DNA from: a virus
Length of the DNA: 37,585 nucleotides
UHGV virus genome: UHGV-0147806
Strand: one strand, 5' to 3'
A program made the translations under genes and the position numbers. Within the stretch, counting starts at the first letter, position 1. Each line of letters begins with the position of its first letter. The notes under the pieces were generated by a model, which was given only the letters and a program-made list of their open reading frames with translations, did no database searches and had not been told where the DNA came from. Shown here one piece after another: positions 10,699 to 17,196 of the stretch.

Positions 10699-11529
10699 GT
10701 GCTGAACGAACTATGGGAACTGAAAAAAGCTGGTTTCGTTGATAAAAGCGCGTACACCTGGCGTGTGGCTGATAACAACGTTCAGCAGGAACAGCCAATG
10801 CAGGCAGAACTGCCGGAAGAAACCACCACGGCAACTGTAGTGAAAATCTCAGAGTGCGATTTAACCGCGACGATTGAACAACGCGGACCACAAACGGCGG
10901 ATGAACTGGCTACGCTGTTCGGTACAACATCCCGCAAAGTTGCTTCAACGCTGGCAATGGCAATCAGCAAAGGACGCCTGATTCGCGTAAACCAGAACGG
11001 TAAATTTCGTTACTGCATGCCGGGCGATAATTTACCAGCAGAGCCGAAAGCTGCATCGGTAGCGGAAACTGATGGTAAAGCCTTTCCTCAGCCAGCCGGT
11101 GTTGCGTTACCAGTACAGGAAGCGGCAACACAGGAAGAGCGTGAAAAAATTAAGGAGCAGGTTGTTGAGTTGGTACGCCAGAGTGGGCGCGAGACGTTAA
11201 GGCAACTGGAGGCCAAGACAGGTGCGACAAGATATCTGATGAGCATTCTTGCCAGAGAGTTGGTTGCCAGTGGCGATGTATACAACTCTGGCTATGGGTT
11301 ATTCCCGTCTGAACAGGCTCGTAAGGATTGGAAAAACGCCCGCAAAAAACTATCCAGGGCAAAGGTGAAAAAAACGGTTGTGGTTGATCCTGACCTTATC
11401 TGGTCATTACCAGACGGAGAAATACGCCGCTATGACAGGCGTCAGAACATAATCTGTCGCGAGTGCCGGAAGAGTGAAGTTATGAAACGTGTACTGGCAT
11501 TTTATCAAGGAAATCTTCGGTATTTATAG
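10699..11529 (+). CDS. YdaW-like protein, N-terminus probably disrupted (upstream fragment 10613..10663 in another frame)
   Basis: First ATG of the long frame is 10699, but the frame is open from 10630; a strong RBS (GGGAGGAAATTTTT-ATG at 10613) opens a 16-codon ORF in a different frame ending in TAG. Confidence 0.6.
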
Positions 11530-11826
11530 ACGTTACTAGATCAAAGAGCATTAGTTCATATGTAAATTGACATTTTTCTGGCACAGGGGAGAGCTAGCGT
11601 GGTTGTCCGCTTTGTGCCAGGAGCGGAAGTAGCAAACCAGATTTTACTGAAGCTTGAGCAGAGATACCACCAACTGATGCCTATCAGTAATGGGGCTCTT
11701 GATGATTCAAATAAAAAAGATTAAATTGATTAAGATTATTCTTACTTGATTAATTGTTTTGCGCATGGGCTTGGAAAACCATGAATCAGATCTTCACTAG
11801 ATAAAACAACGAACTATGGAGGAAGC

Positions 11827-12918
11827 GTGGGCGGCGAAACTAAGAATATTGATGAGATTGCAGGTATCATTTCCAGTAGAATTTTTGATGAGTTAGGCTG
11901 GAAAACCCAAAATACAACGGATATAAGTTGGGACTGTTGTTTGAGATCTCATCTAAACGCTAAACAACTTTTATCTGAAAACCCAAAAAAAACTCATCCT
12001 ACGGATGTAGTCTTCAAATATAAAGATCCTTATTCAGATATAACTCAGTATATACAAACAGATTTAAAATCTTATTGTGCCAGCACGCTTGACGGTACAA
12101 AATCAATATTGAACACTGTACGAAGTTTATCACAACAGGTAGCTTGCGCGCCAAGAAGTCCTGAGTGGCGGCGTTTATTTGTTGACAGCACAAATGAGAA
12201 ATATCAAGTTAACGGCCTACTTTTTATATATAATCATGACAATAAATATGACTCTGATTTAATTGAGAAATTAAATGGAGCAGCCACAGCAAGTTATGAT
12301 TTTCCAGAGAACTCTGTGATTGCCGTTTTTGACCCAACTATGATCAGATTTTTACTAGATGTTACAGAACACATCGAGACTAGAAGAGGAATTACTGACA
12401 AAGTAACACAAGAAACAAATATGTTATGGCAAAAAATTCCTGAGATAGAGAACTGTACATATTTTTACCCTGACAAACATAATAAAATAGCAACGAAAGG
12501 GAAAATCCTTCCAGCCACAATTGAAATGATAACATCTGGGATGATTTTTTACTCATATGAACACGAATATATTAGAAATGATGGTGGCGATAGAATAAGA
12601 AATAAAATATTGAATATATTCTGGAAGGAAGAGGTTGATTCCAGTAACCACTTTATATTTCTTTTAGAGTATATATTTAACTATCAATTACTCAATCAAT
12701 TTGACAAAATATTTGTTATAACTCCGTTCTCATCACACTCAAGCATTCATTTGCAATCCGCCATTAATGATTACATAGGAATATATTCTTTCACTCAATC
12801 TCATATAGAAACGTTAAAGGAAAAAATAGTATCCATTCCTTTTGTTAATCAAAAGCTATCTATATTTGAGTACCAGGTTGCCAGCAAGCAGGTGAATAGA
12901 AAATGTCACTTTTCATAA
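11827..12918 (+). CDS. Hypothetical protein A of AT-rich three-gene accessory operon (363 aa, GTG start)
   Basis: GTG at 11827 preceded by GGAGGA; AT-rich codon usage; no motif I can recognise with certainty. Confidence 0.7.
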   Translation: MGGETKNIDEIAGIISSRIFDELGWKTQNTTDISWDCCLRSHLNAKQLLSENPKKTHPTDVVFKYKDPYSDITQYIQTDLKSYCASTLDGTKSILNTVRSLSQQVACAPRSPEWRRLFVDSTNEKYQVNGLLFIYNHDNKYDSDLIEKLNGAATASYDFPENSVIAVFDPTMIRFLLDVTEHIETRRGITDKVTQETNMLWQKIPEIENCTYFYPDKHNKIATKGKILPATIEMITSGMIFYSYEHEYIRNDGGDRIRNKILNIFWKEEVDSSNHFIFLLEYIFNYQLLNQFDKIFVITPFSSHSSIHLQSAINDYIGIYSFTQSHIETLKEKIVSIPFVNQKLSIFEYQVASKQVNRKCHFS

Positions 12919-12928
12919 GGAGTATGAC

Positions 12929-14176
12929 ATGAATAAATATCAAGCTACGTTGTTTTCAAACGAAAGTGACATTTATACCGCCCTCCACTCTAACAGTGCA
13001 AAAATCACAGATGTTACATTAAGGAAAATCGCCTTCAATAGAGGGATAATTTTCCCATCTAACTTATCAAAAGAGGTATTGATAGAAAAATTATCAGACC
13101 TGCCATTTTCATATAATCACATCAGAGAAGTACAAGATAAACTGGCAACCAAACCCAGCCAAGACGTCTTCTCAGTAAAACGTATATATGAAGAATTTGA
13201 TATAGAGAAACTCTATGACGTTGTAAACAAAGTGAAAGAAAATAGACCCAAGTTGCTAGGGCATGAGAAAATTGATCATTACTCAGGCTTGCAAACCTAT
13301 CATATATCTATTGATTATACTGAGTTTGATTTTAGAAGGGGTAAGTTTCAGCAGAAAAAATTGTACAGTGGGAGTATAGTTTTTATAGTAAAAAAAGGAT
13401 ATGTTTCAGTAAGATATAACTATACGCCACGCATTTCAGAAATTCTCAAGCAAATAATTGATACATATTCATCAACAGTTTGTAACAACATAGTTGTCAA
13501 CGAAATAGATTTATCAAGTATCGTCGATACAGATCTTAGGAATATTTTTGCTGTTCATCTTTATGATTTTGATGGAAATTATAAAAAAACAGGACTTGAA
13601 TATGCTGGTCTTGAAAAGGTTAGAGTAAGCAGAATAAAAACATCTCTGGATATTAATGGAGATAATCTCGAAGGAAATAATAACGAAGAAACACAAGAGT
13701 TATTAAACAAGATTTCACCTTCTACAGATAACGAAAATGATGATGACATTAATAATCAGGAAATGGCATCTGACGATGATGAAAACCTAACTTTTAACAT
13801 TAACAATGCCGCGTATGATGGCCTATCATTAGTGAACGCACCTCAAATTAAGGAACTGTGCAGTGATGGGTTTTATCGAAGCTTAATTCGATGGAAGTCA
13901 TTTTCCTCAGTAGTTAAGAATCATACTATAACTTTTGAACTTAGTTTCGATGATAAATATCTTGGGAAAAATATAAAATTCAGAGCGTTATACAAAGAAA
14001 GCAACTCTGCATCCGCAGAGAGAGAAAAACTCAGTGACGCAGACTTTGATCAAGTCATGAAACAATTAGAAGATAAAATATTTTTGATTAATGACTTTAT
14101 TATCGAAGAGCATACCAAGCGATACCCAGTAACGAAAGCTATGTCTTGCGAGACTTTGAATCAGGAGGCTGGATGA
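12929..14176 (+). CDS. Hypothetical protein B of accessory operon (415 aa, acidic low-complexity linker)
   Basis: ATG after AAGGAG, 10 nt downstream of gene A; DNENDDDINNQEMASDDDEN linker. Confidence 0.7.
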   Translation: MNKYQATLFSNESDIYTALHSNSAKITDVTLRKIAFNRGIIFPSNLSKEVLIEKLSDLPFSYNHIREVQDKLATKPSQDVFSVKRIYEEFDIEKLYDVVNKVKENRPKLLGHEKIDHYSGLQTYHISIDYTEFDFRRGKFQQKKLYSGSIVFIVKKGYVSVRYNYTPRISEILKQIIDTYSSTVCNNIVVNEIDLSSIVDTDLRNIFAVHLYDFDGNYKKTGLEYAGLEKVRVSRIKTSLDINGDNLEGNNNEETQELLNKISPSTDNENDDDINNQEMASDDDENLTFNINNAAYDGLSLVNAPQIKELCSDGFYRSLIRWKSFSSVVKNHTITFELSFDDKYLGKNIKFRALYKESNSASAEREKLSDADFDQVMKQLEDKIFLINDFIIEEHTKRYPVTKAMSCETLNQEAG

Positions 14177-14829
14177 TGATAAAGGTAAAAATTTATAAAG
14201 CAGAAAAGGATATAACTAAAAGTGAGTTATTACATAAAGTAAATGACAACCTCTATGATGAAGATAAAGGATATGGTTTTCAAATCATTAATAACTCTGA
14301 AGTGCTTAAACTAAGATTTACCATGAGAAGCATTAGCAAGCAAAGCTTAGAATATGCTAATGGCGAGCGTTCAGAGGTTGAAATAGCAACTTACTTAAAT
14401 GTGGACTTTGGCGTCAGACAAGGGAAAAAAATCATACTATATGCCACTAATCCTCCATTAAGTATGAAAGTGCCTTATACTATGGTGCAAAAACTATTTG
14501 GTGAAGATAGTGGCTTGAGACCAGTAGAATTTGATCTGAGAAAAATTGTAAATGGTCTTTCTGAGGGCTTTGACATCAAGATAAAATCCATGTCTCTATC
14601 TAATATCTCTGTTGATCCTTTTACTTTAGCAAAGACAAAAATAGTAAGCTCAAAGAATCTCCAAGAAATTTATCAGAATAAATACATGAATAGTTCGGCC
14701 GTTTTTGATTCCGTACATTTCTTCGTTAACGGAATTGAAACGGAATTATCTAGGACGGGTAGATTCCGTGTGAGAGAGAGTCAGCTTCCAACACTTTTAT
14801 CCATCTTAGAAACTCTCAGAATTTTGTGA
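14173..14829 (+). CDS. Hypothetical protein C of accessory operon (about 218 aa)
   Basis: ATGATG start overlapping the gene B stop (ATGA), preceded by AGGAGG; strong intrinsic terminator follows. Confidence 0.65.
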   Translation: MMIKVKIYKAEKDITKSELLHKVNDNLYDEDKGYGFQIINNSEVLKLRFTMRSISKQSLEYANGERSEVEIATYLNVDFGVRQGKKIILYATNPPLSMKVPYTMVQKLFGEDSGLRPVEFDLRKIVNGLSEGFDIKIKSMSLSNISVDPFTLAKTKIVSSKNLQEIYQNKYMNSSAVFDSVHFFVNGIETELSRTGRFRVRESQLPTLLSILETLRIL

Positions 14830-14856
14830 AATATATAAGGAACTCAGGCCTACTTC

Positions 14857-14884
14857 GTCAGTAGGCCCCTTTTCCGGTTTGTAC
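14857..14884 (+). terminator. Rho-independent terminator of the three-gene operon
   Basis: GGCCTACT-tcgtc-AGTAGGCC stem-loop followed by CCTTTT. Confidence 0.75.
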
Positions 14885-15375
14885 TTATCTAGTCATCGAT
14901 TTGATCGTAATGATTCACACAGGATGCTGTTAGCAATGTCCGCTCTTCGCTCAAAGCGGACTAAAATGTTGGCTTGTTTCTGACTTAGAGCATTTAAGGA
15001 AGTGCTGGTGGTGACTGGTTGTTGTGTTCCATTTCTACAGAATAAAATCACAGAAACTATACCCAATAGTTGTATTGAATCACTGACGAGACAGCCTCAT
15101 ATTTATCAGGACTGGTGTGCGTCTAATACAGGGGGTTGTCGTGCTGGTTCTCAAATGTGCGCTGGCTATTGCGGCTGTAATGGCAATTTATTGTCTTGCT
15201 GTTGTTCTTATGGAGCGGCTTTCTGATTGATTACATACTGGCTAGAAAAAAGGTGTTACCTTGGTTTATCTTTGTCCGGCAAGGTGCGCTCATTAATCTT
15301 AAGTAAATTTATTGCTCAAGTATTCAGATTACTTCTTATGGTTGAAGTCTCCTGTCAATGTAGAACCAATATATT

Positions 15376-15415
15376 TACAAAAATGAGACCCGTCGGGGAT
15401 AGCCCTGCCGGGTCT
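15376..15415 (-). terminator. Rho-independent terminator of the DUF1971 gene (minus strand)
   Basis: AGACCCG ... CGGGTCT stem with an inner GGG/CCC pairing, followed on the minus strand by CATTTTTG. Confidence 0.6.
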
Positions 15416-15444
15416 GACTGTTAAAGCATTTTTAATATGATCAT

Positions 15445-15783
15445 CTATTTTTTGGTGCTATAGACTTTTTCGCCCGAAAAGTCTGGAGCGACCCAAAAGT
15501 TAATATTAAACTGAGCATCATCGCTTAGTTCAACACGGTGCCAGTATTGTGGTGGGCTTGTTGCAAAAGCGCCAGCATTAATGACTACTTTTATCTCCGG
15601 TTCAGTAGCATTCTCATCAGTAAAACCATAATATGTTACAGTGCCTTCCATTACGCACAACTGCCCAAAAACACCTGCTGCTGTATTATGATGTGTTAAT
15701 AACGCTGAAGGTACGTTCTCTTTTGTGAAGAACGGAGTTGAGCGTTTGATTACCCAATCTTTAGGAATTCTCTTGTGTGTCAT
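15445..15783 (-). CDS. DUF1971-family (YeaR-like cupin) protein, 112 aa
   Basis: ATG at 15783 preceded by GGAGGAGGTGG; the translation resembles E. coli YeaR as I recall it. Confidence 0.7.
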   Translation of the reverse strand: MTHKRIPKDWVIKRSTPFFTKENVPSALLTHHNTAAGVFGQLCVMEGTVTYYGFTDENATEPEIKVVINAGAFATSPPQYWHRVELSDDAQFNINFWVAPDFSGEKVYSTKK

Positions 15784-16596
15784 AACCACCTCCTCCAAAA
15801 CATGCATTAAAAATGCATCTTTTGGAGGGTTATGTCAAGCTGTTATGAAACACATAATTGATATGTTGATTAGAGGAGAAGATAGAATAAATATGGTTGT
15901 TTTTCGTATAACTATTTGTTTTACTTTTAGTTTATGCATTCTGTGTGTTAGGAATAAGTTATTAAAGTTTAATCAAAAAATCTCGATGTAGTCCACATAG
16001 ATTACTGTTACTGAACCTTATTGTGTGTATTAGTTGTGTTCTGAAATTTCAGCTTAATTATTTATGATGTATTTTTTAACGATAAATATTTTCCCAGGAT
16101 ACCTTTACTGTGTATATAAATAAATTATATACGCATAAATAATGTAAAGGCGTCCTTTTAGATATATCTTATCAAATGTTAATGACTTGAGTGGGAAATA
16201 TGATTCCAGCAACTTATCATGTGGCTACTTTATAAAAATAATGCCCATATAAAACAACAAGCGAAAAGGATTACGGATAAAAAAGGAGCGAGATGTGCGA
16301 ACTTGTTATTTTCCATGTTTAACCACCTTAAATAATTGATGATGACGGGATGATTGCATCTGTAATGCTTTTATTGAAATGTTATGATAAAAAAGAACTT
16401 TTGCATAACATTAAAATGTAATTTATCTAATCGTTTTTAATAATAAGTGTCGTATTTCTATCCTTGTACCAGCTATTTGATATGTAGTGTTTGTTCATGC
16501 TATGTGGGGCTTTACACCATAGCCAGTTTATTTATACTTTATTCGTCAGCCTGAACAACTGGCATCTGCTGCGCTGCGCCATCGAGAGATTGAGAA

Positions 16597-17196
16597 ATGG
16601 CGCATATACAACTGGTCAAACAAACCTCTTCTGGTTTACTTCTCCCGGCGACGCCGGAGAGTTGCGATTTTCTGCATCAAATCAAAATAGGTGAGTGGAT
16701 ACACGCAGACTTTAAGCGTGTGCGTAACTACGCATTCCACAAGCGTTTTTTCAAACTCCTGCAACTGGGATTCGATTACTGGACTCCGGTCGGTGGGGCG
16801 ATCACGCCTCGCGAACGAGAACTGCTGTCTGGTTTCGTTGATTACCTGTGCGAATCAGTTGGTCGGGAACACACGCCAGCCCTGAGTGATGCCGCAGAGC
16901 AATACCTTAACACCGTTGCGACTCGTAGAACCCGGGATACGGCGTTGCTAAAGTCGTTTGAGGCTTTCCGCGAGTGGGTAACCATTCAGGCCGGATTTTA
17001 CACCGAGCATATTTATCCGGACGGTAGCCGTGGGCGTCGGGCAAAATCCATCGCTTTTGCGAATATGGACGAAGTCGAGTTTCAGCAGGTTTATAAATCT
17101 GTACTGAATGTGCTGTGGAACTGGATTCTGTTCCGTAAATTCTCCTCTCAGGAGGAAGTTGAAAATGTGGCCGCACAACTACTGGAGTTTGCGTAA
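16597..17196 (+). CDS. Phage nin-region protein of unknown function (199 aa)
   Basis: ORF immediately upstream of ybcO-like and Q-like genes; stop/start overlap with the next gene. Confidence 0.6.
   Translation: MAHIQLVKQTSSGLLLPATPESCDFLHQIKIGEWIHADFKRVRNYAFHKRFFKLLQLGFDYWTPVGGAITPRERELLSGFVDYLCESVGREHTPALSDAAEQYLNTVATRRTRDTALLKSFEAFREWVTIQAGFYTEHIYPDGSRGRRAKSIAFANMDEVEFQQVYKSVLNVLWNWILFRKFSSQEEVENVAAQLLEFA

Follow-up and report, generated by a model that had tools for sequence, protein, structure and literature searches.

The locus considered here lies in the virus genome UHGV-0147806 (UHGV), whose whole sequence of 37,585 nucleotides we refer to as the window. The window represents a lambdoid prophage of the Rac type. 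Over the initial 11.6 kb, which include intR, recE, recT and ydaU, it matches the Rac prophages of numerous E. coli strains with 99.9% identity, and each time this homology breaks off at 11627. Between the replication module and the nin/Q-like genes lies a block of AT-rich DNA (11530-16596) that carries three co-oriented genes and, farther to the right, a gene of the DUF1971 family. This block raises the question of whether it arrived as one piece, as the original prediction from the bare sequence had proposed, and what the three genes might do for the prophage. Our comparisons point to a smaller exchangeable unit, 11637-14912, which is probably a self-contained, horizontally exchanged cassette of the 'hp + hp + hp' (3HP) defense family residing in a cargo slot of lambdoid prophages. 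Its first protein (Hp1) would be a deoxyribonuclease (DNase), the other two (Hp2 and Hp3) would form a scaffold, and the outcome would be abortive infection.

The unusual composition that had been proposed for the block was borne out by calculation. The fraction of G and C (GC) is 0.29-0.41 in each 500-bp window between 11501 and 16500 and about 0.50 on both sides. By segment, the replication module (0.497) and the nin/Q-like genes (0.491) are strongly unlike 11637-14912 (0.338), 14913-15258 (0.425), the DUF1971 gene (0.413) and the spacer at 15808-16596 (0.305). Comparison with other E. coli prophages by BLASTN, which gave sharp borders, shows that this low-GC block is a mosaic of four modules: the three-gene cassette, a conserved segment to its right that we call the anchor, the DUF1971 module, and the leader of a ninB-like gene (Table 1). 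In alignments with Rac prophages from numerous strains, the left-hand homology invariably breaks off at 11627-11636. The Rac-like loci L003 and L004 (comparison loci are numbered with the prefix L) are homologous to the window up to 11627 or 11636 and again from 14913 or 14935, with other genes in between. The Qin-like prophage L002 carries the same cassette in a different backbone; its identity to the window is 84.3% in the 3' part of the DUF977 coding region upstream, 91.6% in the flank after the stop codon of that gene, 99.7-100% in 11637-14912, and 91.3% in 14913-15258. Because this identity profile is a step function, the mobile unit is the 3.3 kb from 11637 to 14912, leader and own terminator included. 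Recombination in the conserved flanks has recently carried the cassette from one prophage lineage to another.

The frequencies of the modules among 5426 complete E. coli genomes also bear on how the block was assembled. The three-gene cassette was detected in 11 of them and the anchor in 1754; 463 contain the DUF1971 gene together with the full-length spacer, and 850 contain some part of the spacer. An island of 5 kb (11530-16596), acquired by one insertion and insulated by convergent terminators, would account for the continuity of the low GC content across the block, and both terminator-like hairpins do exist. We nevertheless consider such an island highly improbable, given these frequencies, the observation that only the cassette is 100% identical across backbones, and the fact that the DUF1971 gene also accompanies other cargos and gives way to hokD elsewhere. 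Nor did we see many prophages in which 11530-16596 forms a single unit with variable ends. What is swapped is the cassette alone; the anchor and the DUF1971/spacer segment are far more widespread and belong either to the shared backbone or to modules that are exchanged separately. Nor is the cassette a fixed component of related prophages, since most of the genomes surveyed lack it and other cargos occupy the same junctions. A nucleotide search of the INPHARED phage collection returned no match to it. One of its copies, in NZ_CP070930.1 (strain 30COLEC), either is interrupted by or adjoins an insertion of ISApl1 (IS30 family) that lies within the matched region.

The list of open reading frames (ORFs) contains the three genes as the plus-strand operon that had been described. 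PADLOC models PDLC03004/5/6 match the three products in gene order (Hp1, Hp2, Hp3). We take the PADLOC names 'Hp1-3' to denote Rst_3HP in the nomenclature of DefenseFinder and PADLOC; the direct comparison with the 3HP proteins of pFR109 is independent of this naming. By BLASTP, Hp1 is 33% identical to pFR109 protein 1 (E 9e-49), Hp2 is 25% identical to protein 2 (E 7e-12), and Hp3 is 22% identical to protein 3 (E 2e-12); all three window proteins are collinear with the reference proteins (sequences from Table S2A of PMC9122126). The system on plasmid pFR109, 'hp + hp + hp', stems from a P2-like prophage hotspot of E. coli E1114 and was reported to give E. coli protection from P1 (Rousset et al. 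2022, PMC9122126). Both systems consist of three co-oriented genes in the same order (363/415/218 residues here, 333/359/227 residues in pFR109), and both are carried in a variable prophage slot. They differ in that Hp2 can be aligned by BLASTP over the N-terminal 200 residues only, and in that the slot here is of Rac-type lambdoid origin and follows a Ren-like gene, whereas that of pFR109 is the P2 hotspot next to cos. The phage range (P1) is known for the reference system only. The Hp2 and Hp3 genes overlap by ATGA, and Hp3 is probably translationally coupled to Hp2 through this overlap.

Relatives of the 3HP proteins form 583 clusters at 50% identity (E up to 1e-3). We surveyed 80 loci from Proteobacteria, Verrucomicrobia, Acidobacteria, Myxococcus and others. 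A full-length Hp2 homolog is encoded in 77 of them and a third ORF of 205-255 residues in 72, and 55 of these 72 third ORFs match an independent hidden Markov model (HMM) of Hp3. The three proteins measure 356/371/231 residues in a Vibrio locus (L010) and 355/359/224 residues in an Aeromonas locus (L012). On these grounds, the assignment of the cassette as a divergent member of the 3HP family is well supported by sequence. Present defense-finding tools would already flag it. Scans of Hp1, Hp2 and Hp3 against Pfam (in a copy without PF26115) and NCBIfam returned no match, and PDB sequence searches with the single proteins and with profiles gave nothing significant. The distant Vibrio fluvialis relative (L010:8468-10988) adjoins a tyrosine integrase and an S24 repressor; from its position beside an integrase it follows that the 3HP family resides on integrated mobile elements outside enterobacteria too.

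A first clue as to how these systems may work comes from Hp1. In Hp1 the residues H57-P58-x-D60 and D79-L80-K81 are invariant among 34 homologs down to 26% identity. Precomputed annotations assign PF26115 (PDDEXK_GAPS4) to all Hp1 homologs, and a recent PGAP annotation describes a protein identical to Hp1 as a PD-(D/E)XK nuclease. An Hp1 profile aligns with GAPS4a over 207 columns (hhalign probability 96.4%, E 1.2e-9). For GAPS4a and GAPS4b of E. coli RiKo we used sequences transcribed from the supplementary AlphaFold3 CIF of bioRxiv 10.1101/2025.09.07.674715; among the best 150 matches of a profile search of representative sequences there were only close Hp1-type proteins. Hp1 is therefore predicted to be a PD-(D/E)xK nuclease effector, homologous to 3HP protein 1 and to GAPS4a. 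In GAPS4, a modelled ring-like dimer of GAPS4b docks two GAPS4a nucleases to give a stable 2:2 complex; the system degrades phage and host DNA upon DNA breaks or in response to linear DNA, a conserved Asp is essential, and neither gene alone is protective (Mahata et al., bioRxiv 10.1101/2025.09.07.674715). That preprint mentions neither 3HP nor RdgC. Hp1 and GAPS4a share PF26115 and the motif H-(G/P)-x-D ... (S/D)-x-K, the active site being HGxD-SxK in GAPS4 and HPxD-DxK in Hp1.

In Hp2, an N-terminal helical domain and an RdgC-like core are joined by a disordered acidic linker (residues ~240-282) to a beta/alpha domain at the C-terminus. For the AlphaFold2 (AF2) models of both Hp2 and Hp3, the best match is RdgC, a toroidal protein that binds DNA, and both are thus predicted to adopt the RdgC fold. 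A deep Hp2 profile (79 sequences) aligns with GAPS4b over 211 columns (hhalign probability 59%, E 9.4e-5). This alignment is collinear from the N-terminus, matches an invariant RG motif, and scores 39.2, whereas none of 30 shuffles scored above 19.6. We regard Hp2 as a probable distant homolog of GAPS4b. The ring-like shape described for the GAPS4b dimer is a further parallel to the modelled fold of Hp2 and Hp3, which is that of the toroidal RdgC. On the other hand, GAPS4 consists of two genes, which are sometimes fused, whereas three genes are conserved throughout the 3HP family, and a trigger and DNase activity have been shown for GAPS4 only. Because of the three-gene architecture and the dissimilarity of Hp3 to GAPS4b, we classify the cassette as related to GAPS4 but outside that system proper. 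The RdgC proteins of E. coli and P. aeruginosa differ in being homodimers that have no associated nuclease. Neither Hp2 nor Hp3 has any sequence similarity to RdgC or to RexA of phage lambda, and Pfam, NCBIfam and PDB searches gave no match.

The fold of the recombination-associated protein RdgC also suggests another function, namely that the cassette serves prophage recombination or replication as a pair of RdgC-like RecA modulators and a nuclease beside NinB/Orf genes. RdgC homologs do occur in phages, and the cassette sits between the replication genes and the ninB-like DUF1367 gene. Such a role is very unlikely for a cassette that is dispensable, as its rarity indicates, and whose junctions elsewhere accommodate Abi-type and unrelated genes. 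Its composition is unlike that of the phage backbone, and its relatives extend to Vibrio, Aeromonas and many phyla; the Aeromonas copy (L012) lies among housekeeping genes and the Vibrio copy (L010) beside the integrase and the S24 repressor. Moreover, a homologous system cloned alone confers phage resistance (PMC9122126).

For a role in defense we propose the following scheme. The cargo slot lies between the Ren-like DUF977 gene and the conserved anchor of ~330 bp, and homologous recombination in these flanks exchanges its cargos among prophage lineages. Within the cassette, Hp1 would serve as the PD-(D/E)xK DNase effector, and Hp2, as the counterpart of GAPS4b, would assemble with Hp3 into an RdgC-fold ring or scaffold that encircles or binds DNA. 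This scaffold may sense aberrant or linear DNA, or breaks caused by infection with another phage, and would then license Hp1 to degrade DNA. The result would be abortive infection and protection of the lysogen population. What remains of the former 'island' is made up of separate modules, namely the anchor with a candidate membrane peptide of 29 residues, a DUF1971 moron that has a terminator of its own, and the nin-gene leader. The homologies and folds come from our comparisons; complex formation, the trigger and the nuclease activity we infer.

Several observations weigh against this scheme. The identity to the validated 3HP system is just 22-33%, and the defense role of the present variant is predicted from that relationship. 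The likeness to RdgC rests on AF2 models, of which that of Hp2 is of moderate quality (pLDDT 74.8). The connection between Hp2 and GAPS4b is weak at the probability given above, and a shallower Hp2 profile found no match to GAPS4b by hhalign. Even with deep profiles, hhalign detected zero similarity between Hp3 and GAPS4b or between Hp2 and Hp3. We found no published 3HP mechanism in the searchable literature. The leader of the cassette (11637-11826) contains no strong promoter according to a consensus scan, and H-NS often silences AT-rich stretches in E. coli; expression of the cassette in the lysogen is thus predicted at most.

An invariant active site in a predicted nuclease is also what one might expect of a toxin, and the operon could accordingly be read as an addiction module in which Hp2 and Hp3 neutralize Hp1 and the main effect is stabilization of the prophage rather than sensing of phages. 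The equivalent slot in K-12 Qin holds relBE-hokD, and toxin-type genes occur at or beside the slot in other prophages (a RelA/SpoT cargo and the adjacent hokD). However, the partners of Hp1 are large proteins (415 and 218 residues) of a predicted DNA-binding fold and not small labile antitoxins, and the related GAPS4 proteins form a stable complex of which neither component protects by itself. We consider an addiction module unlikely, with the proviso that such a module and abortive-infection defense are not mutually exclusive in practice.

With regard to defense by 3HP, the family itself was known; what we add is a divergent member, a well-defined slot, and a proposed connection of 3HP with GAPS4 and RdgC through a predicted mechanism. 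This connection gives 3HP a testable mechanistic frame: a GAPS4a-type nuclease with two RdgC-fold partners, linked to the DNA-break-sensing GAPS4. A bolder version, which we put forward tentatively and with more doubt than conviction, is that 3HP represents a three-component elaboration of GAPS4, in which two different RdgC-fold proteins, Hp2 (equivalent to GAPS4b) and the additional Hp3, build a heteromeric ring that threads onto or clamps linear DNA ends and gates a GAPS4a-type DNase. Both systems would then belong to one superfamily of 'RdgC-ring plus PD-(D/E)xK' DNA-integrity sensors, and the slot between the Ren-like gene and the anchor would be an undescribed defense hotspot, its unannotated cargos being new defense genes.

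Table 1. Features of the low-GC block and its left border (positions in the window).
Feature	Position	Strand	Evidence or remark
DUF1627::DUF977 (Ren-like) in-frame fusion, left border gene	10699-11529	+	Pfam, PHROG
Three-gene cassette (predicted defense) with leader and own terminator	11637-14912	+	identity step, prophage comparison
Hp1 gene, 363 aa	11827-12918	+	PADLOC Hp1, E 5e-41
Hp2 gene, 415 aa	12929-14176	+	PADLOC Hp2, E 9.6e-11
Hp3 gene, 218 aa	14173-14829	+	PADLOC Hp3, E 4.2e-11
Cassette intrinsic-terminator-like hairpin, GGCCTACT / AGTAGGCC then CCTTTTCC	14847-14873	+	read from sequence
Conserved unannotated anchor	14913-15258	+	1754/5426 genomes
29-aa hydrophobic ORF, VLVLKCALAIAAVMAIYCLAVVLMERLSD	15141-15230		GTG start, AGGGGG Shine-Dalgarno; most conserved anchor part
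DUF1971 module	about 15259-16228		hokD in place in other prophages
DUF1971-gene intrinsic terminator, hairpin then ATTTTTGT	15376-15415	-	30 nt past stop codon
DUF1971 (TehB N-terminal-like) gene	15445-15807	-	Pfam DUF1971, E 2.6e-26
AT-rich non-coding spacer	15808-16596		GC 0.305; no ORF above 88 aa
Leader of ninB-like gene	16229-16596		part of spacer kept with that gene

The slot itself, bordered by the Ren-like DUF977 gene on its left and by the anchor on its right, holds at least 10 alternative cargos in different prophages. Besides the three-gene 3HP cassette we found a hypothetical pair of 320 and 333 residues (shared by Rac-like and Qin-like backbones), a '4-fold beta flower' protein with a 471-residue protein, an AIPR protein (PADLOC AbiU, E 7e-24), a 269-residue protein on the opposite strand, a RelA/SpoT protein (PADLOC PDC-S33, E 5e-119), a 340-residue protein, an AbiH-family fragment (PGAP) with insertion sequence (IS) elements, a NUDIX (PADLOC PDC-S07, E 7e-10) and HAD pair, and a set of 675, 115 and 282 residues. 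Three cargos other than 3HP thus match PADLOC models (AbiU, PDC-S33 and PDC-S07). No PADLOC match was obtained for the alternative cargos at L003:3506-5485, L004:3627-5522, L008:4071-4880 and L016:2898-3920, and a further alternative cargo occupies the slot at L019:702-4478. The cargos of these five loci are candidates for undescribed defense genes. At the equivalent position of K-12 Qin, relBE lies directly upstream of hokD; the anchor is absent from this prophage, where relBE abuts hokD.

The slot shows the pattern of a prophage defense hotspot. Like the P2/P4 hotspots (Rousset 2022) and P2 hotspot #1 (Vassallo et al. 2022 preprint), it is enclosed by conserved flanks and accommodates numerous cargos that exclude one another, some known as defense genes and some candidates for such a role. 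It differs from the P2/P4 hotspots by its location in lambdoid Rac-like and Qin-like prophages, after a DUF977/Ren-like gene, and by the conserved, non-coding-looking anchor that bounds it on the right. Nothing in the literature that we could search describes this slot, though a description may exist elsewhere. With its borders defined to the base pair and its right anchor present in about one-third of complete E. coli genomes, the slot provides a list of candidate defense genes in the form of its mutually exclusive cargos, several of which have no known function.

The gene at the left border had been called ydaW-like. It does lie upstream of the block, and we correct its identity to an in-frame fusion of DUF1627 (Pfam E 2.2e-53) and DUF977 (E 6.6e-30), with a product that belongs to PHROG 142, 'Ren-like exclusion protein'. 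Compared with the Rac-like prophage L003, 265 bp are missing from the window (junction at 11128-11138). This deletion relative to other Rac prophages fused the normally separate DUF1627 and DUF977 genes. The 3' part of DUF977 and ~100 bp past its stop codon constitute the conserved left flank of the cargo slot.

The signals that might govern transcription of the cassette agree only in part with those first proposed. The hairpin that follows the Hp3 gene exists, though ~10 nt to the left of the predicted 14857-14884, with a stem at 14847-14867 and a T-run of only four Ts at 14870-14873 (dG -13.4 kcal/mol, z -3.1). It is part of the cassette and 100% identical in the Qin-like copy. The terminator on the minus strand (dG -17.7 kcal/mol, z -2.6) lies exactly where it was predicted and would end the DUF1971 transcript. 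The two are not back-to-back, as had been claimed, since ~510 bp and a conserved element separate them. Their proposed function, to insulate the cargo from phage transcription, is doubtful: phage transcripts would enter the cassette from upstream because the cassette is co-oriented with rightward early transcription. More plausibly, in the lysogen the plus-strand terminator would prevent transcripts of the cassette from extending in the direction of the nin/Q genes. A simple consensus scan for promoters and terminators missed both hairpins and gave fewer promoter-like sites than in shuffled sequences. In the leader, a weak promoter-like sequence at ~11726-11754, below the threshold of the scan, was seen by eye. 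The suggestion that the genes are an accessory 'moron' is supported in part, by their atypical composition, their variable presence and the terminator-like hairpin; as to a promoter, there is this weak sequence only.

The anchor lies to the right of at least 10 different cargos, and nothing is annotated under it in the genomes that carry it. It contains an ORF for a hydrophobic peptide of 29 residues that has escaped annotation and is intact in 13 of 13 distinct anchor copies. In this frame, synonymous and non-synonymous changes are equal in number (7:7) and the latter are mostly conservative, compared with ratios of 3:11 and 4:10 in the other frames, a pattern in favor of this frame. The peptide matches no Pfam, NCBIfam or Rfam family and is a candidate for a small membrane or type-I-toxin-like peptide. 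We flag it as a conserved unannotated ORF. An overlapping Cys-rich ORF of 74 residues (15002-15226) was rejected as non-coding (3 synonymous and 23 non-synonymous changes). At the left edge of the anchor, where homology resumes, there is an inverted repeat (14938-14961) of 7 bp, GTCCGCT ... AGCGGAC, with a loop of 10 nt. A 43-nt stretch that includes it (14919-14961) matches the inside of ydfV in K-12 Qin with 81% identity (E 1.5e-6).

Next to the anchor, the convergent DUF1971 gene is present as described, with a start at 15783 according to PGAP. It also matches the TehB N-terminal region of NCBIfam (E 5e-13, below the curated cut-off). This gene is an accessory module in its own right, distinct from the 3HP cassette: it is kept next to other cargos in L003, L004 and L019. 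Other prophages that share the DUF1367/DUF1364/DUF1133 nin module have hokD in its place (L100:3394-3549, L101:4755-4910). The DUF1971 gene and the distal part of the spacer (15259-16228) form a second exchangeable position.

The remaining spacer (15808-16596) was said to hold no convincing ORF, and this description stands: no reading frame exceeds 88 residues, no Rfam family matches, and no annotation was found in 25 sampled genomes. A search of 11000-17000 against Rfam (E up to 1) returned only a chance match to a CRISPR direct repeat (E 0.45). In about 366 records with a best match of 60-80% identity, only 16229-16596 match, and this part alone travels with the ninB-like gene. The region's best match to a sigma-70-like site (TTTACA-16-TATACT, 10 of 12 positions) is found at 16511-16538, 59 bp upstream of the ninB-like DUF1367 gene and within the part of the spacer that is conserved with it.

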